Source: Candidatus Woesebacteria bacterium
Lineage (GTDB): Bacteria > Patescibacteriota > Microgenomatia > UBA8517
Length of the DNA stretch: 64,000 nucleotides
Direction of reading: 5' to 3'
Assembly (NCBI GenBank): GCA_016432365.1
Contig: CP066686.1
Location: 273,771 to 337,770, forward strand
Shown: piece after piece, positions 207-60,115 of the stretch
Numbering within the stretch: position 1 is the stretch's first letter
Layout of the letters: the number at the start of each line of letters is the position of its first letter
Translations under genes and position numbers: made by a program
Notes under the pieces: generated by a model
Database searches by the model: none
Told to the model about the DNA's origin: nothing
The model's input: the letters and a program-made list of their open reading frames with translations, nothing else

Positions 207-626
207 TTAGCGCCAGTTCTGTTCTTCCAGAAACATCTTCGCGGCAAAAGCAGCGGTAGCGAAAGAACCTTTCGGCATGAGTGGCCAGATTTCGACCTTG
301 TCAAAAGGAAATCTGGATGTAAGCTCTCTGCCAAATACTTCATCGGACAAAATGATCCCCCACGCCCTTCCAAGGCGGTTTCGCCAACCTTCAAGCTCTC
401 TTTCTCTTTGCTCGTTCCAGCTAGCGAGGCCGATGATTTGAAGGGGAGGTATATTGTCTCCACCTTGGTGGGTCAGAATGTACACAGACACTTTTTCAGG
501 ATCTTTTTTAAGGTCCTCGAAAGAGTTTGCTGTGGCCTGGCGGAGAGCTGGGCCAATGATCGTTTTAATGTGCTTTTTCAAAACTTCTGCATCCTCTTGG
601 GACGCAATCAAAAATAGGTCGGGCAT
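207..626 (-). CDS. hypothetical protein (139 aa)
   Basis: Complete ORF with native codon composition. No recognisable motif. Confidence 0.5.
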   Translation of the reverse strand: MPDLFLIASQEDAEVLKKHIKTIIGPALRQATANSFEDLKKDPEKVSVYILTHQGGDNIPPLQIIGLASWNEQRERELEGWRNRLGRAWGIILSDEVFGRELTSRFPFDKVEIWPLMPKGSFATAAFAAKMFLEEQNWR

Positions 627-7083: not shown

Positions 7084-7706
7084 ATACGATTGGTCAAATC
7101 ATAAAAAATGCCCGTGTCGTAAAAGAATATTCTTTGAGCCGCCTCGAGGAAATTACAAAAATTAAAAAAGGCTTCATTTCTTCAATTGAAGAGGAAAATT
7201 GGGAGGAACTTCCCCCTTTCCCGACAGTGTTGGGATTCGTGAAGAGTATTGCCGGAGCACTTGAAGTGGACGAAAGAACTGCGGTGGCAACTTTAAAGAG
7301 GGACTATCCGCCAAAAAAATTGAGGATCAATCCTAAACCGGATGTTTCTCGGAAGTTTGTCTGGAGTCCAAAGTTGACTTTTATTATAGGTGTTGGACTT
7401 GTCTTTACAGTAATATTTGGATATTTGGCATTTCAATATACCAGATTTATTTCACCTCCGGCACTAAGTGTAGATAGTCCTGTTGAAGATCAAATTGTGT
7501 CAGGAAATAACGTGTTAGTTTTTGGTAATACGGATGTAGATGTAAAAATAACTGTCAATAATCAGCCGGTATTGGTTGACAATGATGGAAAATTCTCTGT
7601 AAGTATGGAAGTTGTGCCCGATACAAAAGAGATTGTAATTCAAGCAGTTTCAAGATCTGGTAAAATGAATGAAGTAAGGCGAAAGATACTAGTTACTAGT
7701 AACTAG
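7080..7706 (+). CDS. RodZ-like HTH membrane protein
   Basis: N-terminal HTH (XRE-like) segment, single TM and a C-terminal beta-rich domain. Overlaps the ftsK stop codon. Confidence 0.6.
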   Translation: MNTIGQIIKNARVVKEYSLSRLEEITKIKKGFISSIEEENWEELPPFPTVLGFVKSIAGALEVDERTAVATLKRDYPPKKLRINPKPDVSRKFVWSPKLTFIIGVGLVFTVIFGYLAFQYTRFISPPALSVDSPVEDQIVSGNNVLVFGNTDVDVKITVNNQPVLVDNDGKFSVSMEVVPDTKEIVIQAVSRSGKMNEVRRKILVTSN

Positions 7707-7724
7707 ATACTAATTTCTAAATAC

Positions 7725-7958
7725 GTGGATAACATTCAGACACTTTTAATAGTTGTAGTAGTAAGTTTGACCTTGCTTCTGGTCATTGTCGGAGTGCAGG
7801 TTATGTTAATTATTATCGATCTTCGGCGTGCCATTAAAAGATTAAATTCTATTTTGGAAGACGCGATTTTGGGCGGAGGACTAATTCGTCCGGAGCGACT
7901 TAGTTCTGTCTTGGAGCTTCTGCATAAAAACAAAAAACTGGAAACCCATGGAGGTTAG
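7725..7958 (+). CDS. small hypothetical membrane protein (GTG start)
   Basis: 77-aa ORF with one strong TM helix. No RBS. Weak support. Confidence 0.3.
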   Translation: MDNIQTLLIVVVVSLTLLLVIVGVQVMLIIIDLRRAIKRLNSILEDAILGGGLIRPERLSSVLELLHKNKKLETHGG

Positions 7959-8158
7959 TGCCACTCAAGTTTTTGAGCAAGCTTTCTTAAGTCCAATTTT
8001 GGAAGTTTGTCTGTTTCGACCAAGTATTCCTCAAGACCAATTTTTTCTGTAAGGTAGTCGGCAGTTAGCTCTTTTAGTCTCTTTTCTCCAGAATTTACTT
8101 CTTCAGCTGTAAACTGATGTTTTAATAAACCAATTCTTTCTAAAAATCTTTCTTGCAT
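7955..8158 (-). CDS. small hypothetical protein (67 aa)
   Basis: ORF only. Convergent with the preceding small ORF. No other signals. Confidence 0.2.
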   Translation of the reverse strand: MQERFLERIGLLKHQFTAEEVNSGEKRLKELTADYLTEKIGLEEYLVETDKLPKLDLRKLAQKLEWH

Positions 8159-8216
8159 CGTAGGTTGATTCTAACACAAGCTGGATTACAGTCAAATTTG
8201 AGGTTATACTTTAGCC

Positions 8217-10022
8217 ATGACGACAAAAGAGATCCGCGAAAAATATATAGCTTTTTTTAAAGCCAGGGGACACAAAGAAATTGCTCCGTCTCCACTCGTT
8301 CTGGAAAACGATCCGACTACCCTGTTTACCTCTTCCGGAATGCAACAAATGATACCTTTTCTTAAAGGTGAAAAACATCCATTAGGAACTCGGCTGGTTG
8401 ATTCTCAACCATCACTCCGGCTTCAAGATATTGAAGAGGTTGGAGACAATCGACATACGACATTTTTTGAAATGCTTGGCAACTGGTCACTCGGGGATTA
8501 TTTTAAAAAAGACCAATTGCTTTGGGTTTGGGAATTCATGACCAAGGAAATTGGGCTTGACCCAAAAAGGCTTTACGTAAGTTGTTTTGTTGGTAACGAC
8601 GAGGTTGGAAAGGATACGGAGTCGTATGATATTTGGAAAAAAATTGGAGTAGATGACGGGCATATTCATTTTTACGATGCCAAGAAGAATTGGTGGAGTC
8701 GTGCAGGTGAGCCCTCCAAAATGCCTGCAGGTGAAATTGGAGGTCCAGACTCTGAAATATTTTTTGAATTTGAAAATGTATCCCACTACCCCGCATTTGG
8801 GAAGTTTTGTCATCCGAATTGTGATTGTGGAAAATTTTTAGAAATCGGGAACTCCGTTTTCATGCAATTTATGAAAAATGAAGACGGTACGCTTTCAGAA
8901 TTGCCTCAAAAAAATGTCGATTTCGGTGGAGGACTAGAGCGAATCGCTGCCGCATTAAATAATGACCCAGATGTGTTTAAAATCGATATTTTTAAGTCCA
9001 TAATCAACAAAGTCGAAAAGGAAGTCGGTTTTAATTATGGAACAGATACAAAAAAGACGAAAAGTTTCAGAATAGTTGCAGACCATCTTAGGGCTTCGTG
9101 TAATTTACTTGCCGAAGGCGTTCTCCCATCAAATAAACTTCAAGGATACGTTCTTCGCCGTCTAATCAGGAGAGCGATGTTCCATTTTCATTTACTCGGT
9201 GCAGGAATTTCCGGCAGTGGAGTGTCACATGTTGCGGAAAGTTTAAGGCGGGAGTACACGAGCATAGATAAAAACTGGGATTTCGTAGAGGAGAACCTAA
9301 ATGTTGAAGCAACAAGATTTGAGTCGGCCCTAAAACGTGGTCTGGCCAAGCTAACACGTGCAGTATCCGATGGAGTCAAAATCGACGGTAAGGTTGCTTT
9401 TGATCTTTATCAAAACGACGGCTTCCCCTTGGAACTTACAATGGAAATTTTGAGCCAGAATGGTATGAATTTTTCTGCCGAAGAGAAAAATTTATTTGAG
9501 AGTGAATTTGAAAAGCACAAAGAAAATTCAAGAAGTATGTCAGCAGGAATTTTCAAAGGAGGACTGGAAAACAAATCAGACGAAACAATAACTAAACTTC
9601 ATACGGCTACTCATCTGCTTCACGCCGCGCTACGGGAGATCTTGGGTGAACATGTCGGTCAAAAAGGAAGCCATATAACGAATGAGAGATTGCGCTTCGA
9701 TTTTTCTTATCCGCAAAAATTAACAGACGACGAAATTAAAAAAGTTGAAAACTTGATCAATGAAAAAATAAAAGAAGATTTGCCGGTAACTTTTTCTGAA
9801 ATGAGTTTAGATGAAGCAATTAAAACCGGAGCCCTCCATTTCTTTGCAGAAAAATATGGAAAAAAAGTAAAAGTGTACACAATGGGGTCTTTTAGTCGCG
9901 AGATATGTGGTGGCCCTCATGTAACACACACAAAAGATGTTGGTGGTGTTAATATTATTAAGCAAGAGAAAATAGGAGCGGGAATTGTTAGACTTTATGC
10001 ATCATTAGAAGGCAAAAGTTAA
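8217..10022 (+). CDS. alaS: alanyl-tRNA synthetase, short form lacking the C-Ala domain
   Basis: Class II AlaRS catalytic core at the N-terminus (FTSSGM..., NWS(L)GDYFK). Editing-domain HxxxH...CGG(P)H zinc motif near the C-terminus. Only 601 aa. Confidence 0.85.
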   Translation: MTTKEIREKYIAFFKARGHKEIAPSPLVLENDPTTLFTSSGMQQMIPFLKGEKHPLGTRLVDSQPSLRLQDIEEVGDNRHTTFFEMLGNWSLGDYFKKDQLLWVWEFMTKEIGLDPKRLYVSCFVGNDEVGKDTESYDIWKKIGVDDGHIHFYDAKKNWWSRAGEPSKMPAGEIGGPDSEIFFEFENVSHYPAFGKFCHPNCDCGKFLEIGNSVFMQFMKNEDGTLSELPQKNVDFGGGLERIAAALNNDPDVFKIDIFKSIINKVEKEVGFNYGTDTKKTKSFRIVADHLRASCNLLAEGVLPSNKLQGYVLRRLIRRAMFHFHLLGAGISGSGVSHVAESLRREYTSIDKNWDFVEENLNVEATRFESALKRGLAKLTRAVSDGVKIDGKVAFDLYQNDGFPLELTMEILSQNGMNFSAEEKNLFESEFEKHKENSRSMSAGIFKGGLENKSDETITKLHTATHLLHAALREILGEHVGQKGSHITNERLRFDFSYPQKLTDDEIKKVENLINEKIKEDLPVTFSEMSLDEAIKTGALHFFAEKYGKKVKVYTMGSFSREICGGPHVTHTKDVGGVNIIKQEKIGAGIVRLYASLEGKS

Positions 10023-13965: not shown

Positions 13966-14583
13966 ATGGAAACCGGAACGGTAAAATGGTTCGACGCCCG
14001 GGAAGGTAAAAAGTTTGGCTTCGTGACGGCTGAGGATGGGAAAGAAATTTTCTTCCATTACAATGACGGAAGACCCATTCAGGTCAATGTCACAAAACGC
14101 CGAGTCGAGTTTTCCGACCAGCCTACGTTTCAGACCAAAGACGGAGTTCGCCGTCTTCGCGACCCCAAGCCCGGAGACAAAATCGTTTTTGTCAGGACGC
14201 AGGGTTACAAGGGTGATAAGGCATCGCCTTGGTCTTTCAAGTCGATCCACGACAAAGCAATCGACCAAATTGCCAAGTTGCCGGAACCGACTGTGTACCG
14301 AGCCCTCGAGACGATGAATAATGTCGGCGACGTGGCCGGTGAACCCAAGGTGTTGTGGGAAGGGTCCGATTTGGAAGCGCTCCTTGCCAAGTACCCAGTA
14401 CCTTCTGGTAGGCAGTCTCCCGGTTCCGATCCACTGATTCCGTATTATTCGGATTCAGACAATATCTTTGAGATTCGGCACTGGTTCGAGAAGAAGGTTG
14501 GAGAAATCTGGGAGCAATGCCCCGATCCACGCTTGCTGTCGGGAGCAAACCGACAGTTCGAACGTATCACCAACCGTTGGTAA
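13966..14583 (+). CDS. cold-shock domain (CspA-like) protein fused to an uncharacterised 140-aa C-terminal domain
   Basis: METGTVKWFD...KGFGFV RNP motifs of the CSD. Strong SD AAAAGGAGTGA 6 nt before the ATG. Locally GC-rich. Confidence 0.75.
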   Translation: METGTVKWFDAREGKKFGFVTAEDGKEIFFHYNDGRPIQVNVTKRRVEFSDQPTFQTKDGVRRLRDPKPGDKIVFVRTQGYKGDKASPWSFKSIHDKAIDQIAKLPEPTVYRALETMNNVGDVAGEPKVLWEGSDLEALLAKYPVPSGRQSPGSDPLIPYYSDSDNIFEIRHWFEKKVGEIWEQCPDPRLLSGANRQFERITNRW

Positions 14584-28400: not shown

Positions 28401-28709
28401 ATGGCAACAGGAAGACTAAGGGTAAAACTCAAAAGTTATGACCACAGGGTCTTAGATGAGGCGGCTTCAAAGATAATTGATACCGCTTTAGCTACTGGTG
28501 CCAAAATTGTAGGTCCAATTCCTCTCCCCACAGACCGCTCCATGATGGCCATTAAAGAGTCTCCTTTTACTGATAAAGATGCTCAAGAGCACTATGAAGT
28601 TTTAACCCACAAACGATTAATCGATATAATTGACCCATCCCCGCGTACGGTTGATTCCCTAGGGAATCTGGATCTCCCTGCAGGCGTAAGTATCGAAATC
28701 AAAATGTAA
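28401..28709 (+). CDS. rpsJ: 30S ribosomal protein S10
   Basis: Typical S10 ([10 protein letters not shown]..). Confidence 0.9.
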
Positions 28710-28720
28710 GCCCCATAGTC

Positions 28721-28749
28721 TTGACTCTTGGCCTCATTTGTGTTATCAT
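28721..28749 (+). promoter_or_regulatory. promoter TTGACT-17-TATCAT of inserted mini-gene
   Basis: Seen directly. Precedes an SD-ATG at 28795. Confidence 0.4.
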
Positions 28750-28794
28750 TCCCCAACTTACATTCTGTAAGAATCTTGCACTTTGGAGGCATAA

Positions 28795-29094
28795 ATGATT
28801 TCTGTTAAACCTATCAACAATGCGCAATCGTTGGAAGTTAGGAAAAAGAAGTTCGGTCTGGAAATTGAATTGACTGCCATTTTTGGTCTCGGTATCACGA
28901 CCAAGGCGAAAATTTCCACGAGAGATTTGAAAGCCAGCCTTGAACAGCCGATTGGCGAACATCGTGATTTCGACGGATCTCTAAGGCGAGTGGTTCGGAC
29001 CGGTTTCAATCACACCCATCTTTTTTTCAAACCGAACAGCAATAACGACCTAGTTGTGGTCGAAACATCGGATCTACTGATCGCAATAAGTTAA
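28795..29094 (+). CDS. hypothetical 99-aa protein (autonomous inserted gene)
   Basis: GGAGG SD 7 nt upstream of the ATG, with its own promoter and intrinsic terminator. Locally about 48% GC. Confidence 0.55.
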
Positions 29095-29117
29095 GCATCA
29101 TTGAAATACAAGTCAGT

Positions 29118-29158
29118 AGCCCTGAACAATCAGCAATACGTTCAGGGCTATTTTTTTG
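29118..29158 (+). terminator. Rho-independent terminator (10-bp stem AGCCCTGAAC/GTTCAGGGCT plus T7)
   Basis: Perfect inverted repeat followed by ATTTTTTTG. Confidence 0.65.
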
Positions 29159-29199: not shown

Positions 29200-29228
29200 T
29201 TGACGTTCGTCTCAGGATGATATATAAT
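29200..29228 (+). promoter_or_regulatory. promoter TTGACG-17-TATAAT for rplC and downstream S10-operon genes, followed by a roughly 160-nt structured leader
   Basis: Seen directly. The leader contains GCGCC-TTCGG-AGGCGC tetraloop hairpins. Confidence 0.45.
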
Positions 29229-29394
29229 TCCCCTCATGACATCCTCATCGGATGAATAGATAGTCTTCGTAAGATGCCTTCGGGCGCCTTCGGAGGCGCT
29301 CGTTTAATGACGGTTGGAATCACCAGCTGGTTTCAGAACATATGATAAGTGAACTTCGCTTTAAGCGTAAGCCCGCCTTGTCATTCGCAGACTC

Positions 29395-30189
29395 ATGATT
29401 AATACAATTTTAGGTTCAAAAGGAGTAAATTCTCAAACCTTTATACAAGGGTTCAGAATTCCCGTTACAAAGGTAACAGCGGGTCCTTGTGTCGTGACTC
29501 AAATTAAAAAAACCGATAAGGACGGCTATTGGGCAATTCAACTCGGCTTTTCAGCCAAATCCGGCAAAAATACTTCAAAATCACTTCAAGGTCACCTCAA
29601 AGAAAGTCAAAAGTCAGAAGTCAAAAGTCAAAATTTTCCAAGATATCTCAGAGAAGTTAGAGTAGACAGCGAGCCGGAATATAAAGTCGGGGACACAGTA
29701 AACGCCTCCGACATTTTTCATCCCGGGGATATTGTTTCCGTCATGGGTGTAAGTAAAGGCAAAGGCTTTGCTGGAGTAGTTAAGAGGCATGGTTTCCGCG
29801 GTGGCCCAAGAACTCACGGTCAATCTGATCGCGAACGCGCTCCCGGATCAATCGGTCAAACTACAACTCCGGGAAGAGTTTACAGGGGTAAAAGAATGGC
29901 GGGGAGAATGGGGGGAGAGCAAGTAACAGTAGAAAATCTTCATATAATTAGTATAAATGCAGAAAAAAACGAGCTGGAAGTTTCAGGACAAATTCCGGGA
30001 ACAGTTGGCTCTCTGGTTACAATAAACAAGATCAAATCAGGAAGCCTTAAAGAACTTGAACACGAAGTAGTGGCGCAAATGGTAGAGGGTGAAGGAGCAG
30101 CGGAAGAATCAAAAACAGGAGATGATAAGGCCGAATCCGCCCCAGCCCAGCCGACAGCTTCGGCACCCGAAGGAGGAGCTAAAGAATAA
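29395..30189 (+). CDS. rplC: 50S ribosomal protein L3
   Basis: Typical L3 blocks. Contains a KESQKSEVKSQNF insertion and an acidic C-terminal tail. Confidence 0.9.
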   Translation: MINTILGSKGVNSQTFIQGFRIPVTKVTAGPCVVTQIKKTDKDGYWAIQLGFSAKSGKNTSKSLQGHLKESQKSEVKSQNFPRYLREVRVDSEPEYKVGDTVNASDIFHPGDIVSVMGVSKGKGFAGVVKRHGFRGGPRTHGQSDRERAPGSIGQTTTPGRVYRGKRMAGRMGGEQVTVENLHIISINAEKNELEVSGQIPGTVGSLVTINKIKSGSLKELEHEVVAQMVEGEGAAEESKTGDDKAESAPAQPTASAPEGGAKE

Positions 30190-37107: not shown

Positions 37108-37620
37108 ATGGCAAATTTTAATAGGAGGCAACAATACGATACAGGACCAAAAGAGTTCGAAGAAACAGTGGTCCAAATAAATAGGGTTTCCAAGAAGACA
37201 AAAGGTGGAAATCAGGCAAGATTCTCCGCACTTGTTGTTGTGGGAGATAAAAAGGGGAGAGTCGGAGTAGGGCTTGCCAAGGCCCATGACGTACGAAACG
37301 CGATCAGGAAATCAATTGAAGCAGCCAAGAGAAAATTAATCGTAGTCCCGCTCTCTGGTACCACAATACCATATTCGGTCAACGAGAAATTTTCGGCAGC
37401 AAAAATATTATTAAAACCAGCACCCCCAGGGAGTGGAATTATTGCGGGAGGCCCTATGAGAGTAGTTCTTGAGGCAGCCGGAATAAGAGATGCAGTAGGA
37501 AAGATTTTGGGAACTAAAAATAAAATCTCAAACGTTTATGCCACCCTTAAAGCCTTGGAACAAATTACCGGTATTGTAGAAATGAAGAAAAAGCCGGCAA
37601 AGGCAGAAACTAAAGAATAA
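37108..37620 (+). CDS. rpsE: 30S ribosomal protein S5
   Basis: Typical S5. Confidence 0.9.
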   Translation: MANFNRRQQYDTGPKEFEETVVQINRVSKKTKGGNQARFSALVVVGDKKGRVGVGLAKAHDVRNAIRKSIEAAKRKLIVVPLSGTTIPYSVNEKFSAAKILLKPAPPGSGIIAGGPMRVVLEAAGIRDAVGKILGTKNKISNVYATLKALEQITGIVEMKKKPAKAETKE

Positions 37621-37625
37621 TCAAA

Positions 37626-38039
37626 ATGGAAAAAAATAAACTACCAAAGATAGTTCAAAGACCAAAAAAACGTGTAGGACGTGGTGTTGGTTCGGGTAAA
37701 GGTAGTCATACTTCAGGACGTGGTCAAAAAGGACAAAAATCAAGAACTTCAAAAGGAATTCTTTTTGAAGGGCTTAAAATGAAGAAGTCCTTCCTCAAAA
37801 GGCTTCCGCTTCAAAGAGGGAAGGGAAAATTTAAGGCCGGTGGAAAACCGCTGACTCTCAATCTGAGAGACTTGGAAGTTCTCCCGACCGGATCAAAGAT
37901 TACAGTTGAACTTTTGGTGAAAGAAAAGCTAGTTGATGCAAAATTGGCCAAAAAATTTGGAGTAAAAATATTAGGCGGAGGCAAAACAACCAAAAAATTT
38001 ACGTTCGAAGTCCCAACCTCAAAAAGTGTAGTTAAATAA
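37626..38039 (+). CDS. rplO: 50S ribosomal protein L15
   Basis: Gly/Arg-rich N-terminus (GRGVGSGKGSHTSGRGQKGQ). Follows rpsE directly, so no L30 gene. Confidence 0.85.
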   Translation: MEKNKLPKIVQRPKKRVGRGVGSGKGSHTSGRGQKGQKSRTSKGILFEGLKMKKSFLKRLPLQRGKGKFKAGGKPLTLNLRDLEVLPTGSKITVELLVKEKLVDAKLAKKFGVKILGGGKTTKKFTFEVPTSKSVVK

Positions 38040-38080
38040 ATTTCCTTAAGTTTCTGTGATTTTCCCCAAATTCCTTTTTT

Positions 38081-38150
38081 TCAAAAAAAAGACACCCCCT
38101 TTATAATCCTTGCGGATAACCTTATTACAGGTTGGGGGTGTTGTTTTACA
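38081..38150. terminator. bidirectional intrinsic terminator (A-run, 8-bp GC stem ACACCCCC/GGGGGTGT, T-run)
   Basis: Seen directly. Serves rplO on the plus strand and the convergent 38179-38862 gene on the minus strand. Confidence 0.5.
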
Positions 38151-38178
38151 CTTTGCGGGTTTGTTGTGTTTGGTTTTA

Positions 38179-38862
38179 TTACTTGTTGGAAATGGCGATG
38201 TTGTTGCCGAAAACTTTCTTGAAAGCTTCAACAACGTTGTCTACAATCGACATGTGATTGTCGTCGAGTTCAGTCCAACTGAAGGCGTTTGCAATCTCGA
38301 CGCGCGCCTCGTAAGGCTGTATTGAAACTTGTGTGACGCCCGGGATCTGCATAACGATGCGGACAAATTCTCCGCCGCCATCAATGCCGACCTTGCGTAG
38401 ATACTCAAGGCTGGAAATCCGAAGTGGACGCTGGAAAGTCTCATAGCGTGTATTCGAGATTTCAAAGTTGGTGGCGAAACCCCGAAGCCGATCGTTTGGA
38501 TAAGTCTCAATGACAAGTCTTTTCCGGGGATGTAGCTCGTCATACCTTGCTTGAAATGCCTTTTTGACAATCTGGTCGATCTTTTCGTTCCAGAGCGTTC
38601 GACGTCCGAAGGAATCTTTCTCCTTCAGGTAGATCGCAACTTCATATGGTTCAACAAAAATATGGTCAACCCCATCGATCTGGCGCAGTTCCTGAACCAT
38701 CTCGGCTACGATACGGTCATGGTCGCGAAGAGCTTCGAGGTGCAAACTTCGAGCCGAACCATGGGACGTATAGAGCGAGATGTTTTGCTTGCCGATTTCC
38801 ACATTAGTTGAGAAAGTTCTCCCCAACGCGTGGTGCACACGAACATTGAATATCAGTTTCAT
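38179..38862 (-). CDS. hypothetical 228-aa protein with internal tandem duplication (two domains of about 110 aa), inserted on the opposite strand between rplO and secY
   Basis: SD GGAGAAAG before MKLIFNV.... Own promoter and terminator. Locally about 48-50% GC. Repeats aligned by eye (IFVEPYEVAIYL / VSIQPYEARVEI and others). Confidence 0.6.
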   Translation of the reverse strand: MKLIFNVRVHHALGRTFSTNVEIGKQNISLYTSHGSARSLHLEALRDHDRIVAEMVQELRQIDGVDHIFVEPYEVAIYLKEKDSFGRRTLWNEKIDQIVKKAFQARYDELHPRKRLVIETYPNDRLRGFATNFEISNTRYETFQRPLRISSLEYLRKVGIDGGGEFVRIVMQIPGVTQVSIQPYEARVEIANAFSWTELDDNHMSIVDNVVEAFKKVFGNNIAISNK

Positions 38863-38945
38863 AATCTTTCTCCGATTTCTCATCATCATCAGAATAGAAT
38901 TTCCGAAGCCAAAACCCGCAATTTCAACGTGCAAAACCGAACCGC

Positions 38946-38974
38946 ATTCTATAACAACCACACATCAAAGTCAA
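38946..38974 (-). promoter_or_regulatory. promoter TTGACT-17-TAGAAT (minus strand) for the inserted 228-aa gene
   Basis: Reverse complement read directly from the sequence. Confidence 0.45.
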
Positions 38975-39039
38975 GATTATGGGATATTGTGTAGAAAAAC
39001 CCTGTCTTTAGGATCAAAATTGGGATATAATTTACAAAC

Positions 39040-40323
39040 ATGTTTAATTCAATAATTCACTTTTTTGATAAAGCGGTCAAAACCCCCTCTATCAGGAGAA
39101 AATTACTAGTCACTGCCGGGGTCTTGATTATCTTTAGGCTTGCAGGGCATATTCCGGCAGCCGGTATAAACAGGGAAACTTTGACCGCTCTTTTTAACGG
39201 GAGTCCTCTTCTTTCGCTTTTAGATGTATTTTCAGGCGGAACTTTGGCCAACTTTTCCATTCTTGCACTGGGGCTTAACCCTTACATCAATGCCTCGATT
39301 ATTTTTCAGATGTTGGGCTATGTGATTCCGAGTCTGGAAGCACTTCAAAAAGAAGGGGAATTTGGTCAGGAAAAAATCAATCAATACACACGACTTTTAA
39401 CAGTCCCATTAGCCGCTCTTCAGGCTTTTGGAATGTATGCCCTTTTGAAGGGTCAGCAGGTTATCCCAAACTTGGAACCTGTAGCTCTTTTGTCATTAGT
39501 AATAACTATGACTGCAGGTACCGTTTTTGCTGTTTGGCTTGGAGAACTAATTAGCGAATACGGTTTTAAAAATGGAGTTTCCATTCTGATCTTCACCGGA
39601 ATTGTTGCGCGTTTACCCATCACTTTAGGGCAATCGGCTAGTGTTGTTCAGTCGCAAGACGTTCTCAAGGTGATAATTTTCTTGGCGGTTGCAGTTGTTA
39701 TTGTTGGACTTGTGATTTTCATCAGCGAAGCGGCACGTCAAATTCCGATTCACTATGCCAAAAGAAGGACAGAAAGCGGGCTTGCCTCAACTTCTTATCT
39801 TCCTCTTCGTCTTAATCAGGCCGGAGTAATCCCTATAATTTTTGCCGTATCTTTGGTTCTTTTACCCTCGCTCTTGGGTCAGTTTTTGGTAAATGTTCCC
39901 AACGCTGCGGTTGCCAATATTGCCCGAACGATCAGTACGGCTTTTAACCCCCAATCACTTACTTACAACTTGGTATATTTCTTTTTGGTTTTCGGATTTA
40001 CCTATTTTTATACGGCAGTTGTCTTTAACCCAGAAAAAATTTCTGAAGATTTGCAAAAAGGTGGAGGTTTTATCCCCGGAATTCGTCCCGGCAAGGAAAC
40101 GGCAAAGTATCTTTCTTTTGTTCTTGCCCGTTTAACTGTGGTGGGTGGGGCATTTTTGGGAATGGTGGCCATTTTGCCGTCATTTTTCCAGAGTTTTGTC
40201 GGAGTACAAAGCCTGGCCATTGGAGGAACTAGTATCTTGATTGTTGTTTCTGTAGCCCTAGAAGTAATTCGTGAGATTGAAGGTGAAATGGTTATGGGTA
40301 AATACGAAGGGCTAATACGATGA
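39040..40323 (+). CDS. secY: preprotein translocase SecY
   Basis: 10 TM segments and conserved SecY blocks. Confidence 0.9.
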   Translation: MFNSIIHFFDKAVKTPSIRRKLLVTAGVLIIFRLAGHIPAAGINRETLTALFNGSPLLSLLDVFSGGTLANFSILALGLNPYINASIIFQMLGYVIPSLEALQKEGEFGQEKINQYTRLLTVPLAALQAFGMYALLKGQQVIPNLEPVALLSLVITMTAGTVFAVWLGELISEYGFKNGVSILIFTGIVARLPITLGQSASVVQSQDVLKVIIFLAVAVVIVGLVIFISEAARQIPIHYAKRRTESGLASTSYLPLRLNQAGVIPIIFAVSLVLLPSLLGQFLVNVPNAAVANIARTISTAFNPQSLTYNLVYFFLVFGFTYFYTAVVFNPEKISEDLQKGGGFIPGIRPGKETAKYLSFVLARLTVVGGAFLGMVAILPSFFQSFVGVQSLAIGGTSILIVVSVALEVIREIEGEMVMGKYEGLIR

Positions 40324-48264: not shown

Positions 48265-48335
48265 CGGGGTGTAGTTTACCGGTAGAATGGGCGCATGGGG
48301 TGCGTCCGGACTGAGTTCAATTCTCAGCACCCCGA
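48265..48335 (+). tRNA. tRNA-Pro (anticodon GGG), 71 nt, CCA not encoded
   Basis: Hand-folded cloverleaf. 7-bp acceptor stem with C1:G72, U8, D-loop ACCGGUA, anticodon stem GGCGC/GCGUC with loop AUGGGGU (U33, G37), 4-nt variable loop, T-arm CUGAG-UUCAAUU-CUCAG, discriminator A. Confidence 0.6.
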
Positions 48336-48337
48336 CT

Positions 48338-51885: not shown

Positions 51886-52215
51886 TTAAACCAGCTCAGG
51901 TTTGAAATAGTCGTCGGTGTGTGGAAAAGTGTATCCTGCCCACTCATCGGACGCTGTTTCCAAGGATGCCGAAAATGGCAACCAACCAACTCTTGTGTCG
52001 CCCATCACGATATCCATAACTCTGGACGTTCCCGGGTTGTTGTTTAACCAAAAGGTCAGCCTCATTTCTACCAAAGCCCCTGCCTCGTGGTGTTTTGGAT
52101 CGACCTTTCGCAAGAACCTCATTGGGTCCTCGATGCCTCTTGAAAGAAGCACCCGTACGAAAGCAGCCTGGGCAGCACCAACACTTGCGGTAATCTCTAT
52201 CGCTATCGCTGACAT
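51886..52215 (-). CDS. hypothetical 109-aa protein, GC-rich with SD
   Basis: About 50% GC. AAGAGGAG SD before the ATG. No motif recognised. Confidence 0.45.
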   Translation of the reverse strand: MSAIAIEITASVGAAQAAFVRVLLSRGIEDPMRFLRKVDPKHHEAGALVEMRLTFWLNNNPGTSRVMDIVMGDTRVGWLPFSASLETASDEWAGYTFPHTDDYFKPELV

Positions 52216-52385
52216 TGTAAAACTCCTCTTCCCGTCTCGGGAAATTGTGAGACTCGTCTCGAGTCTAGGGTGTGCGAGTGGCGTCGATTTCAGCCAAACT
52301 TAGGCAGTATAGCACAATCAGCCTCAAAAGTCAATAATTATGGGGTACGATTGAAACCATATTTTGGATATGTTATATTGGCGTT

Positions 52386-59562: not shown

Positions 59563-59781
59563 AAAAAATCCCGCATGTGCGGGATTTTTGTACTCTAGAG
59601 AGTAGTAAGCCATTTTCGCTACGCTCAAATGTCTTGGCTTCTCTCTAGTGCACGATACGAAAAACCCCTCCTTATGGAGGGGTAAATCGTACTCTAGAGA
59701 GTAGTAAGCAAATCTTGCTACTCGTTATCCATAAAAAATCCCACGAAAGTGGGATTTTATATACTCTAGAGAGTAGTAAGC
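59563..59781 (-). repeat. three tandem modules of (rnpB 3'-terminal 21-mer GCTTACTACTCTCTAGAGTAC plus intrinsic-terminator hairpin)
   Basis: The antisense 20-mer TACTCTAGAGAGTAGTAAGC occurs identically at 59591-59610, 59690-59709 and 59762-59781. Each copy is flanked by a hairpin of different sequence that conserves the stem (ATCCCGCA/TGCGGGAT; CCCCTCC/GGAGGGG; ATCCCAC/GTGGGAT) next to a T-run. Confidence 0.7.
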
Positions 59782-60115
59782 CAGGTTCTGTTAGGCCCTG
59801 AACAAATTTCAGGGTTTGACGATCATCCATCTAACGCCCTCGAACTTCGGAACGTGGCTCGATTACTCGAGCCGTTGGTAAAGCTCCTGTAACGTTCCTT
59901 TCGGAGGTTGCAGCGGGGAGGATTGCCTCTTTTCACTCGTTTTTCCCTACCTTTAGGGTAAGAAAATCGACATAGTCTCTGTGGCTCTAACTGGCTACAT
60001 TCCTTGCGGAACATATCCCAGGCTTACGCCTGGCACCCTGCTTTTCTGCTGCCTGGACTTTCCTCCCCTCATAGCCTTGCGGCGACGTGGGGCGATCATC
60101 CTTTCTCTAGAGTGA
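59762..60115 (-). ncRNA. rnpB: RNase P RNA (bacterial type A)
   Basis: The reverse complement carries GAGGGGAGGAAAGUCCAGGC (P4 5' strand, CR-I) and AGCAGGGUGCCAGGCGUAAGCCUGGG (the P10-P12 region). It also has AGGUAGGG.AAAA.GAGUGAAAAG (CR-II-like) and a P18 hairpin followed by ACAGAACCUGGCUUAC (CR-V, P4 3' strand). P1 pairs ACUCUAGAGA with UCUCUAGAGU. Confidence 0.8.

Follow-up and report, generated by a model that had tools for sequence, protein, structure and literature searches.

Nfu_N domains (PF08712) are represented by the N-domain of NFU1/Nfu1 (PDB 2LTM, 2LTL), by SAV1430 of S. aureus (1PQX) and by SeR13 of S. epidermidis (2K1H). In the carriers NfuA, Nfu and NFU1, an adaptor domain of the Nfu_N or A-type is placed at the N-terminus and is combined with a NifU-C domain that bears a CXXC motif, and in SAV1430 no cluster-binding domain is attached. 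The role of the NFU1 N-domain has been described as 'still unknown', and the domain has been proposed to gate or modulate the transfer of clusters (PMC10388178). [quoted passage not shown] Here we describe a gene of a Candidatus Woesebacteria genome that can be compared with the first of these systems in its protein and, by analogy, with the second in the ends of its predicted transcript.

We analysed a 64-kb stretch of this genome, hereafter the window, in which a minus-strand gene lies between rplO and secY (Table 1). A preliminary description of this DNA had placed a 228-aa minus-strand gene in the rplO-secY junction; the gene, its strand and its position are borne out, and its length is corrected to 227 aa. 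The flanking genes encode L15 and SecY by Pfam, in agreement with that description, and the interruption of the junction is specific to the lineage. All the remaining real genes between 27 and 50 kb of the window are on the plus strand. The full minus-strand ORF extends from 38179 to 38961, with its conserved start at the ATG at 38862; a start at the upstream GTG at 38961, which would yield a 260-aa ORF, was ruled out because relatives carry an indel that puts the region upstream of the conserved ATG out of frame. The 227-aa protein is identical to the NCBI entry 'hypothetical protein HYV90_01820 [Candidatus Woesebacteria bacterium]'. The gene is genuine, monocistronic and under purifying selection, with dN/dS values of 0.14-0.24 in comparison with orthologues. 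That this is a real gene, and one that encodes a tandem Nfu_N-like protein, we regard as very probable.

Table 1. Coordinates of the features of the rplO-secY junction in the window.
Feature	Position	Strand	Basis and details
rplO (L15), last gene of upstream transcription unit	37626..38039	+	Pfam PF00828
Terminator-like branched hairpin, U-runs on both strands	38083..38148	both	Stem 38091-38099 / 38134-38142; inverted repeat I3
3' box	38142..38174	-	Runs from 5 nt past the stop codon as far as the terminator's foot; inverted repeat I6
CDS of tandem Nfu_N-like protein	38179..38862	-	ORF and translation; 227 aa plus stop; no cysteine
C-terminal Nfu_N-like domain, ~aa 113-227	38182..38526	-	Retains PNxxxRxF and IPGV..V.I.PY...V.I..AF.W motifs
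N-terminal Nfu_N-like domain, more degenerate, ~aa 1-110	38533..38862	-	AF2 secondary structure; hhalign against C-half profile
Shine-Dalgarno GGAG	38870..38873	-	Sequence; 7 nt before the ATG
(GAU)n purine-rich leader tract (CUGAUGAUGAUGA)	38880..38892	-	Kept in homologue leaders down to 25-39% aa identity
5' box	38903..38938	-	Core TTGCACGTTGAAATTGCGG at 38916-38934; begins 8 nt downstream of the -10 hexamer, at about the nucleotide where transcription is predicted to start
Promoter	38946..38983	-	Promoter scan; CCCATAAT 38983-38976, -35 TTGACT 38974-38969, 17-nt spacer, -10 TAGAAT 38951-38946
Promoter element of secY (TGGGATATAAT)	39021..39031	+	Sequence; TATAAT 39026-39031, 8 nt before the ATG
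secY, first gene of downstream unit (secY-adk-map...)	39040..40323	+	Pfam PF00344, E 2.3e-104

The internal tandem duplication suggested by the preliminary description is upheld by the comparison of the two halves of the protein, which match each other in BLASTP with E = 9e-6, and by the alignment of a profile of N-halves with a profile of C-halves in hhalign (probability 99.4%, E = 2.6e-21, 96 columns). The AlphaFold2 model (mean pLDDT 89.4), which was among the checks suggested earlier, shows two strand-strand-strand-helix-helix-strand-strand-helix domains, that is, an alpha/beta fold in tandem, and its specific structural matches are Nfu_N domains, so that the predicted fold appears to agree in three dimensions with that of the solved members. 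Similarity to PII, CutA or YbjN, on which it had been speculated, was sought in fold or sequence and was not found. Searching PDB sequences with family profile A7 returned, as the top four matches, 2LTM (1.7e-6), 1PQX (1.3e-4), 2K1H (1.5e-4) and 2LTL (1.3e-3). PF08712 is matched by 30 of 44 aligned family members (best 6.2e-11) and, in a smaller set, by 9 of 12 (best 1.9e-11), and single-domain homologues annotated with PF08712 align with the C-terminal half. The 227-aa protein itself has no PF08712 match in hmmscan even at E <= 10; its membership is transitive and structural, established via family profiles and intermediate sequences. Scans of the protein with Pfam, NCBIfam and PADLOC gave nothing usable, and weak NCBIfam matches to phage BC1881 and to BasE were dismissed, as they cover 20-50 residues and are far under the cut-offs.

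The protein thus consists of two tandem Nfu_N-like domains and contains no cysteine. It shares with Nfu_N domains the motif PNxxx[KR]xF and the motif [IL].GV..V......[IV]....W followed by a C-terminal helix, and it resembles SAV1430 in having no attached cluster-binding domain. Unlike the known Nfu_N proteins, it carries the domain in tandem in one chain, with a degenerate N-terminal copy, and ahead of its main helix it has an additional helix and an RPLRxSS motif. The domain type of a gene that had been described as of uncharacterised function is now known, and homology points to a putative biochemical role. Since the adaptor domain type is shared with NfuA, Nfu and NFU1, we tentatively assign the protein to an Fe-S pathway, in which it may be a protein-protein interaction or 'gate' module of cluster trafficking that acts in trans. 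In contrast to these three proteins, it has neither a NifU-C domain, for which a search of the protein gave no match, nor CXXC, nor any cysteine, and therefore cannot be a carrier itself; it would be unable to ligate a cluster. No genomic association with ISC/SUF was seen either: no Fe-S assembly gene was present among the called neighbours of 12 loci, and no Fe-S neighbour was conserved at any locus. Because of this, and because the role proposed for the Nfu N-domain is itself tentative, the biochemical function is weakly grounded, and a role as Fe-S adaptor is in our view possible, at somewhat less than an even chance.

At E <= 1e-3, 275 cluster representatives match the family, about 30 of them with two domains; a profile search with a 28-sequence alignment returned few proteins, and a metagenome search with alignment A3 returned four loci. 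All the subfamily members with a named source belong to bacteria of the Candidate Phyla Radiation (CPR), and among named sources the subfamily is apparently restricted to them. In one Woesebacteria clade rplO and secY are separated by the gene, which runs on the opposite strand: Woesebacteria GW2011_GWB1_39_10 (82% aa) has it at this site, as does a lineage with 72% identity (loci L004, L003, L015 and L016, 82% aa; L002, 72%). Homologues with 25-57% identity are found in unrelated contexts, away from ribosomal or sec genes, and the surroundings of some of these distant loci look accessory (an Erm-like methyltransferase plus a tRNA, an APH kinase, ABC exporters). Only about 6 proteins among the 5.8 billion searched are more than 50% identical, and the rplO/secY placement is hence confined to a narrow clade.

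The scattered contexts of the distant homologues and the small number of close relatives in a narrow clade would be expected if the gene had been acquired recently from an unlike donor, as the preliminary description proposed, with the GC-rich composition, the SD and the sigma-70-type promoter betraying its origin. The raised local GC is confirmed (48.0% in the gene, or 0.480, against 41.6%, or 0.416, in the rest of the window; about 48-50% and 40% in the earlier estimate), and the GC3 of 0.548 stands well above the mean of 0.370 +/- 0.058 for the genes of the window. The GGAG ribosome-binding site is also present as described, and SD use is rare in this host: a genuine well-spaced SD precedes 4 of the 59 genes in the window, these four being exactly the four with the highest GC3, and most genes lack an SD and have their -10 element within a few bases of the start codon. 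However, orthologues at this site in two or more further lineages, 82% and 72% identical, argue against a recent insertion, as do the dN/dS values given above and the divergence of the gene, which for one genome pair is within the range of the host genes (it falls between SecY at 96% and Adk at 65%, with L15 at 94%). Moreover, the compositional signals are traits of the family across hosts of 32-49% GC: the gene exceeds its flanks by 2 or more GC points in 15 of 17 homologous loci, GC3 reaches an extreme of 0.90 against 0.49 in the flanks, and an SD was found in every family leader examined. Promoters of the same general type (TTGAC-17-TAnnAT) also precede rpoB, tuf and rplC in the window. Integrase, transposase and flanking direct repeats were not seen at the locus, and no relative of the protein was found in viral contigs. 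As GC-richness and the SD accompany the family in most hosts examined, they are a weak sign of foreignness and are better explained as selected features of the expression module of the gene than as a result of transfer. A recent acquisition thus seems quite unlikely to us, and we consider it likely that the gene is an old, clade-specific insertion with its own transcription unit.

The TTGACT-17-TAGAAT promoter of the preliminary description was recovered at 38974-38946 on the minus strand. It belongs to an arrangement, CCCATA[AG]T followed by TTGACT, that occurs three times in the window and is also present upstream of family genes at other CPR loci; promoters and leaders of the family can be aligned from locus to locus. 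The consensus for sigma-54 is TGGCAC-N5-TTGC, and a sigma-54-like reading of a TTGCAC-N7-TTGC sequence was dropped, as the spacing and the GG dinucleotide are wrong. At the other end of the gene, the intrinsic terminator that had been described as bidirectional is supported by a GC stem with U-runs on both strands, which encloses two small hairpins and has a fold z-score of -3.5 on the minus strand; it was overlooked by a simple terminator scan because of its long loop. This terminator-like hairpin is common to the minus-strand gene and to the convergent rplO transcript. Downstream of it, secY has its own TATAAT, which is kept in the same position, 8-10 nt before the ATG, in two of the other occupied loci (L003 and L004), and a -10 element close to the ATG is the layout of many genes in the window. 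With this conserved -10 element, secY need not rely on read-through from rplO; the collision of antisense transcription with read-through into secY, which had been thought inevitable, is not supported, and the hairpin and U-runs after rplO also count against it. From these sequence elements it appears that the spc cluster is divided here into two transcription units.

The rplO-secY position inside the spc cluster, shared by three or more lineages, might be taken to indicate a ribosome- or secretion-related role, and another small orphan gene, whose promoter is of the same class, does lie between rpsJ and rplC. Yet the homologues at 25-57% identity do not adjoin ribosomal or sec genes, the gene itself is on the opposite strand with a promoter and a terminator of its own, and the specific structural matches of its product are Nfu_N domains; we regard such a role as highly improbable.

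The leader between promoter and start codon contains the (GAU)n tract, whose AUG triplets are in frame with the gene at some loci and at others form a short ORF that ends in AUGA at the start codon. The frame of the tract relative to the main ORF thus differs among loci, and the tract was ruled out as a conserved N-terminal extension or a conserved upstream ORF. A riboswitch-like structured leader was also rejected, since RNAalifold finds no pairs and single folds are no more stable than shuffled sequences; a hairpin presenting a GCGR loop is significant at only one of 12 loci. Rfam 15 gives no match at E <= 1 for positions 37900-39200. In the window as a whole, the only Rfam match at the gathering level is RNase P RNA.

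The 5' box upstream of this tract is complementary to the 3' box that follows the stop codon, in the segment pairs UUUUGCAC/GUGUAAAA and UUGCGGGUUU/AAACCCGCAA. The full 5' box occurs once in the window; in viral contigs its exact sequence has one match, which falls within a coding region on the wrong strand and which we attribute to chance. Upstream of family genes the 5' box is kept in at least 12 loci, and at every locus with a 5' box the inverted box is found after the stop codon. For the window by itself, the pairing has a z-score of -2.55. The sequences of the boxes differ widely among lineages, and across 11 lineages they co-vary: the duplex energies of cognate boxes sum to -288.0 kcal/mol, compared with -186.1 +/- 11.2 for derangements (minimum -236.3), none of 7,297 derangements reaching the cognate value. 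In helix B, 87.5% of the cells are paired, versus 74.9% in shuffles (0 of 500 shuffles) and 31-45% in slid controls, and 6 of the 10 base pairs show compensatory changes on both sides (2 of 500 shuffles). As expected of an interaction of the hbs type, the complementarity is beyond chance and is maintained in evolution. Among the other GC-rich genes (orf99, orf109 and orf139), pairing between the 5' and 3' regions does not rise above shuffles.

Complementary and co-varying boxes could arise at the level of DNA or of RNA. The energies of sense and antisense duplexes are equal (-26.2 vs -26.8 kcal/mol, p = 0.59) and thermodynamics cannot, for this reason, separate RNA pairing from inverted repeats in DNA; G.U pairs exceed A.C pairs in the duplexes by 15 to 3, a count that is biased by the folding algorithm. 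The boxes may be inverted repeats that terminate a small mobile gene cassette, or may give it a recombination or cruciform site; this would explain the scattered and often accessory-looking contexts, and the arms would co-vary as two element ends recognised by one enzyme. Like MITE-like elements and integron cassettes with attC, the locus is a short unit present in many contexts, with an ORF flanked by imperfect, co-varying inverted repeats. Unlike in those elements, at every locus the promoter lies outside the 5' arm and the terminator, a hairpin plus T-run, lies 3' of the 3' box, both being conserved, so that the conserved unit is the transcript and not the segment from repeat to repeat; the layout also differs from an integron cassette in that attC lies only at the 3' end of the cassette. 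In addition, the 5' arm starts at about the predicted first transcribed nucleotide at each locus, neither a recombinase or transposase gene around any locus nor a target-site duplication was found, and for sites that a conserved enzyme reads, the wide divergence of the arm sequences would be unusual. We consider a mobile cassette unlikely.

Alternatively, a regulator, possibly the Nfu_N protein itself, could recognise the 5' box as an operator or as a site in RNA, and the box would define a small regulon, with the complementarity to the 3' UTR being secondary. The short box TTGCACNTTNRA occurs exactly only twice in the window, in the leaders of this gene and of orf99 (at 28776), both behind promoters of the CCCATA[AG]T-TTGACT class, and the third promoter of this class drives orf109. 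The orf99 cassette, with the same promoter and 5' box, has no significant 3' complement, which indicates that the 5' box may have a second role, and the lack of intrinsic structure in the leader also suits a site of this kind. When one mismatch is allowed, however, the short box is no commoner than expected by chance (13 found, 14.2 expected), and the lineage-variable parts of the box are matched by changes in the 3' box, which a site bound purely by protein does not predict. A regulator site as the main function is somewhat unlikely, and pairing of the two boxes in the RNA is, in our judgement, moderately probable.

We propose, from its sequence features, that the family keeps a complete expression module wherever it is found. 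The parts of this module are a strong -35/-10 promoter with the CCCATAAT extension, a 5' box with which the transcript would begin, a purine-rich (GAU)n leader containing a strong SD, a coding sequence enriched in GC3, a 3' box close behind the stop codon and an intrinsic terminator. The ends of the mRNA, as predicted from the position of the -10 element and the terminator, would pair to form a panhandle that conceals the 5' end. This panhandle, together with a ribosome held at the strong SD, may protect the message from 5'-dependent and endonucleolytic decay, as in the hbs mRNA, and the outcome would be a stable, highly expressed message for the putative Fe-S adaptor. The 5'/3'-UTR interaction of hbs is the closest known analogue of the presumed pairing: in both systems a monocistronic mRNA encodes a small and presumably abundant protein, the SD is strong and an intrinsic terminator directly follows the 3' partner. 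They differ in that the interaction in the window family, known here from sequence, would comprise 17-25 bp at the extreme predicted 5' end, is kept with compensatory changes over a whole gene family in several CPR phyla, and is accompanied by a conserved promoter extension and a GC3-enriched ORF. As an assessment blended over its steps, this is the best overall explanation and a reasonably probable one.

These results turn a 'mystery gene' of the spc operon into a known domain type in an undescribed form, which is tandem, cysteine-free and apparently restricted to CPR bacteria, and the protein may serve as a simple system in which to study what the Nfu N-domain does. They also bring out, in an SD-poor genome, a handful of GC3-rich genes with full promoters, leaders and strong SDs, and they call for caution in genome scans, as a GC excess and an SD had here been read as horizontal transfer. 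If the boxes do pair in the mRNA, this family-wide interaction of 5' UTR with 3' UTR, supported by covariation, would be among the clearest comparative cases of end-pairing in bacterial mRNA and would provide a handle on post-transcriptional control in uncultivated CPR organisms. More speculatively, and short of being probable, CPR bacteria may hold a conserved, portable 'stable-message' module, made up of the CCCATAAT-extended promoter, the co-varying panhandle, a strong SD in genomes that are otherwise SD-poor and leaderless-like, and the GC3-enriched ORF, that accompanies the Nfu_N-like family across phyla and whose promoter and 5'-box part is common to other small orphan genes that punctuate ribosomal-protein operons. 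The genes with such a module would then make up a regulon not recognised before, of small proteins expressed highly or conditionally, in organisms about whose gene regulation very little is known.

The gap between rplO and secY holds an open reading frame on the minus strand, while all other real genes between 27 and 50 kb lie on the plus strand, the usual arrangement for the S10-spc-alpha supercluster. The preliminary description had placed a 228-aa minus-strand gene inside this junction; the reading frame and the Pfam assignments of both neighbours agree with that strand and position, but the product is 227 aa long when counted from the conserved ATG at 38862. A longer, GTG-initiated frame was rejected as the gene: it is not conserved, and a 1-nt indel in relatives alters the upstream frame. 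NCBI lists an identical protein, 'hypothetical protein HYV90_01820 [Candidatus Woesebacteria bacterium]', encoded by a contig of 1.08 Mb, and dN/dS against four orthologues is 0.14-0.24. Upstream, rpsE runs straight into rplO (37620-37626) with no rpmD (L30) in between; L30 is commonly missing from CPR bacteria. Apart from the genes for RNase P RNA and tRNA-Pro(GGG), no RNA gene was detected in the window.

Positions of the features discussed, in window coordinates
Feature	Position	Strand	Remarks
139-aa orphan gene	207-626	-	top-GC3/SD set
Full TTGACT-17-TAGAAT promoter	8168-8195	-	within intergenic region 7706-8217, divergent from gene at 8217
CSD protein gene	13966-14583		top-GC3/SD set
rpsJ	28401-28709
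99-aa orphan cassette	28712-29156	+	
99-aa orphan gene	28795-29094	+	between rpsJ and rplC
Terminator of 99-aa orphan	~29117-29156		
rplC promoter and leader	29200-29394	+	
rplC	29395-30189		
rplO (L15)	37626-38039	+	Pfam
Terminator stem	38091-38099 with 38134-38142		
3' box	38142-38174	-	
Nfu_N gene	38179-38862	-	top-GC3/SD set
(GAU)n tract	38880-38892	-	
5' box	38903-38938	-	
Nfu_N promoter	38974-38946	-	TTGACT-17-TAGAAT
secY (SecY)	39040-40323	+	Pfam
tRNA-Pro(GGG)	48265-48336	+	
109-aa orphan gene	51886-52215	-	top-GC3/SD set; GC 0.50, GC3 0.54
109-aa orphan with promoter and leader	51886-52344	-	
RNase P RNA	59761-60111	-	class A, 105.9 bits

The two halves of the protein match each other by BLASTP (9e-6) and in profile-profile comparison (probability 99.4%, E 2.6e-21), in agreement with the internal tandem duplication proposed earlier. 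Direct Pfam and NCBIfam scans of the 227-aa protein matched nothing. A profile search recovered single-domain homologues of 125-131 aa that carry PF08712 (Nfu_N), one of them named 'NifU N-terminal domain-containing protein [Candidatus Dojkabacteria]', and that align with the C-terminal half. PF08712 was matched by 9 of 12 and then by 30 of 44 aligned family members, and the top four PDB matches of the C-terminal-domain family profile are the four solved Nfu_N structures (2LTM, 1.7e-6; 1PQX, 1.3e-4; 2K1H, 1.5e-4; 2LTL, 1.3e-3). The AlphaFold2 model has two strand-strand-strand-helix-helix-strand-strand-helix domains (pLDDT 89.4), whose relative orientation is uncertain at a pTM of 0.57. The duplicated alpha/beta protein envisaged at first stands, but the PII/CutA-like or YbjN-like fold, put forward as a speculation, gives way to Nfu_N on the PF08712 and PDB profile matches. 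We regard the protein as an undescribed form of a known domain family. An exhaustive HMM search at E <= 1e-3 found 275 cluster representatives, of which some 30 have the two-domain architecture, and the named sources are all CPR/Patescibacteria (Woesebacteria, Saccharibacteria, Dojkabacteria and 'Patescibacteria group').

Homology makes the 227-aa protein a module of the Nfu N-domain type. What this domain does in NFU1 'is still unknown' according to the literature, which proposes that it gates or modulates [4Fe-4S] transfer (PMC10388178). The protein contains no cysteine and therefore cannot ligate an Fe-S cluster. Such a cysteine-free tandem form would most plausibly serve Fe-S trafficking in trans, either as an adaptor or as an escort, a suggestion that we hold with less than even confidence; its neighbourhoods lend no support, as no Fe-S assembly gene lies near the homologues in the loci examined.

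The same placement, with the gene transcribed away from secY and towards rplO, is found in Woesebacteria GW2011_GWB1_39_10 (82% aa identity) and in metagenome contigs L003, L015 and L016, which are identical to it; lineage L002, at 72% identity, has the gene there too, as seen on the rplO side. Between the window and GW2011_GWB1_39_10, identities are 96% for SecY, 95% for S5, 94% for L15, 82% for the Nfu_N protein and 65% for Adk, a pattern that fits vertical co-inheritance. Homologues at 57% identity or less occur elsewhere: after gyrB, after alaS, next to ABC exporters, beside a kinase of the APH type, or alongside a tRNA together with an Erm-like methyltransferase. No recurrent partner gene was found across these distant loci, and no relatives were found in viral contigs. 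The interruption of rplO-secY is thus lineage-specific, as had been proposed. The horizontal acquisition also proposed is not supported as a recent event, given the shared site in the 82% and 72% lineages and a divergence within the SecY-Adk range. Sharing of the site by close relatives, with distant homologues located elsewhere, points to an insertion that is old and limited to a narrow clade rather than a strain-level acquisition.

In GW2011_GWB1_39_10 (L004, 1377-5406) a TrpR-family (PF01371) gene sits between rplO and the Nfu_N gene, and the secY-adk gap holds a retropepsin-like aspartyl protease-like gene and a 156-aa membrane-like ORF; intergenic junctions of the spc cluster seem permissive in this Woesebacteria clade. 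Single-domain homologues of Saccharibacteria/Dojkabacteria (L005, 1-1860; L007, 1-2615; L006, 3700-4309) lie directly downstream of a tRNA 3' end, with an Erm/KsgA-like rRNA adenine methyltransferase gene nearby in two of the three loci. At another locus (L011, 5-1264) the gyrB upstream of the homologue seems to be interrupted by an intein, which ends in the motif ...VFVHNS before GyrB sequence resumes.

The expression signals read from the sequence at the outset are present: the gene's own TTGACT-17-TAGAAT promoter, GGAG 7 nt upstream of the ATG, and a bidirectional terminator-like hairpin, whose GC-rich stem encloses two small hairpins and is flanked by U-runs on both strands. Full TTGAC-17-TAnnAT promoters are over-represented in the window (7 found vs 1.9 expected) and also precede rpoB, tuf and rplC. 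The gene had been expected to be transcribed against read-through into secY. However, secY has a TATAAT of its own 8 nt before its ATG, kept in relatives, and rplO is followed by the hairpin and its U-run. Two transcription units are then the simplest reading of the cluster, and the supposed collision would disappear. The rplC promoter, TTGACG-17-TATAAT, precedes a leader some 165 nt long that contains GC-rich hairpins (e.g. GCCTTCGGGCGCCTTCGGAGGCGC); this leader matches no Rfam family at gathering score and may be an undescribed ribosomal-protein leader.

The raised local GC noted previously is confirmed (0.480 vs 0.416 in the rest of the window), and GC3 is 0.548 vs a gene mean of 0.370 +/- 0.058. 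Across hosts of 32-49% GC, the family gene lies at least 2 GC points above its flanks in 15 of 17 loci, and a strong SD is present in every family leader examined, so that GC excess and expression signals appear to be traits of the family. Its extreme is a single-domain gene of a Patescibacteria MAG (L023, 4001-4324; GC3 0.90, GC 0.63, flank GC 0.49). A typical window gene lacks an SD and has a TATAAT-like hexamer 8-12 nt before its ATG, a leaderless-like layout; the four genes of highest GC3 among 59 (marked in the table) are exactly the four with a leader and a well-spaced strong SD.

The window has three CCCATA[AG]T-TTGACT promoters, one at the Nfu_N gene and the others at two orphans. The 99-aa orphan forms a second small cassette that breaks a conserved ribosomal junction, with the promoter CCCATAGT-CTTGACT-17-TATCAT, a leader that includes TCTTGCACTTTGGAGG, where the CTTGCACTTTG box of the Nfu_N gene recurs together with an SD, and a clean terminator downstream. 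The third member of the class, the 109-aa orphan, has CCCATAAT-TA-TTGACT-17-TATACT ahead of a leader some 85 nt long, and its SD is GAGGAG. Both orphans are unrelated to Nfu_N, match nothing in Pfam, PADLOC or PDB, and show no significant 5'/3' complementarity. The shared promoters suggest a promoter subclass or small regulon.

Four upstream elements are common to the family, even where aa identity falls to about 25-39%, and also in single-domain forms from other phyla: CCyATAA adjoining the -35 TTGACT; a box, yTTGCAC-N-TTgAAA-TTGCGGr, whose start lies near predicted +1 to +9; a purine-rich (GAU)n tract; and the SD. In the (GAU)n tract, 2-6 AUGs follow one another and lead into Arg/Lys codons. 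At some loci these AUGs share the frame of the gene, but the frame is not conserved; at five loci they open a short ORF that ends in a UGA overlapping the start codon (AUGA). The leader alone yields no consensus structure and no Rfam match. The full 5' box occurs once in the window, and a repeat search showed its second half recurring, inverted, directly after the stop codon (repeat I6). All loci with the 5' box have a matching inverted box between stop codon and terminator. The window pairs are UUUUGCAC/GUGUAAAA and UUGCGGGUUU/AAACCCGCAA, and in L019, L020 and L021 the duplex is near-continuous over 20-25 bp. Arm sequences vary among lineages yet match within each (GCGGAAU/AUUCCGC in L020, GCGAUUUGU/ACAAAUCGC in L005, GCUGCGGAG/CUCCGCAGC in L024, CGCUUGGG/CCCUCAAGCG in L008).

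Three tests support pairing of the boxes, as predicted from sequence. Cognate duplex energies over 11 lineages sum to -288.0 kcal/mol, a value reached by none of 7,297 deranged pairings (mean -186.1 +/- 11.2, minimum -236.3). With the GCG helix aligned without gaps, pairing holds in 87.5% of cells vs 74.9 +/- 2.3 in shuffles (0 of 500 as high), both sides change in 6 of 10 pairs (2 of 500 shuffles), and the covariation score is 0.330 vs 0.125 (0 of 500); slid registers pair at 31-45%. The window locus alone gives z = -2.55.

Sense and antisense duplex energies are equal, and so favour neither RNA nor DNA. Pairing at the RNA rather than the DNA level is favoured because, in all loci, transcription signals enclose the arms, with the conserved promoter beyond the 5' arm and the terminator beyond the 3' arm, and because the 5' arm begins at about the first predicted transcribed nucleotides; neither a recombinase gene nor a target duplication was found at the locus in the window. 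[quoted passage not shown] The arm placement, the lack of a recombinase and this analogue lead us to propose that the mRNA ends form a panhandle. We consider the co-varying 5'/3' boxes the most interesting result. The module would give rise to a stable, strongly translated monocistronic mRNA with its ends paired, and GC3 enrichment would, speculatively, fit through the removal of AU-rich cleavage sites.
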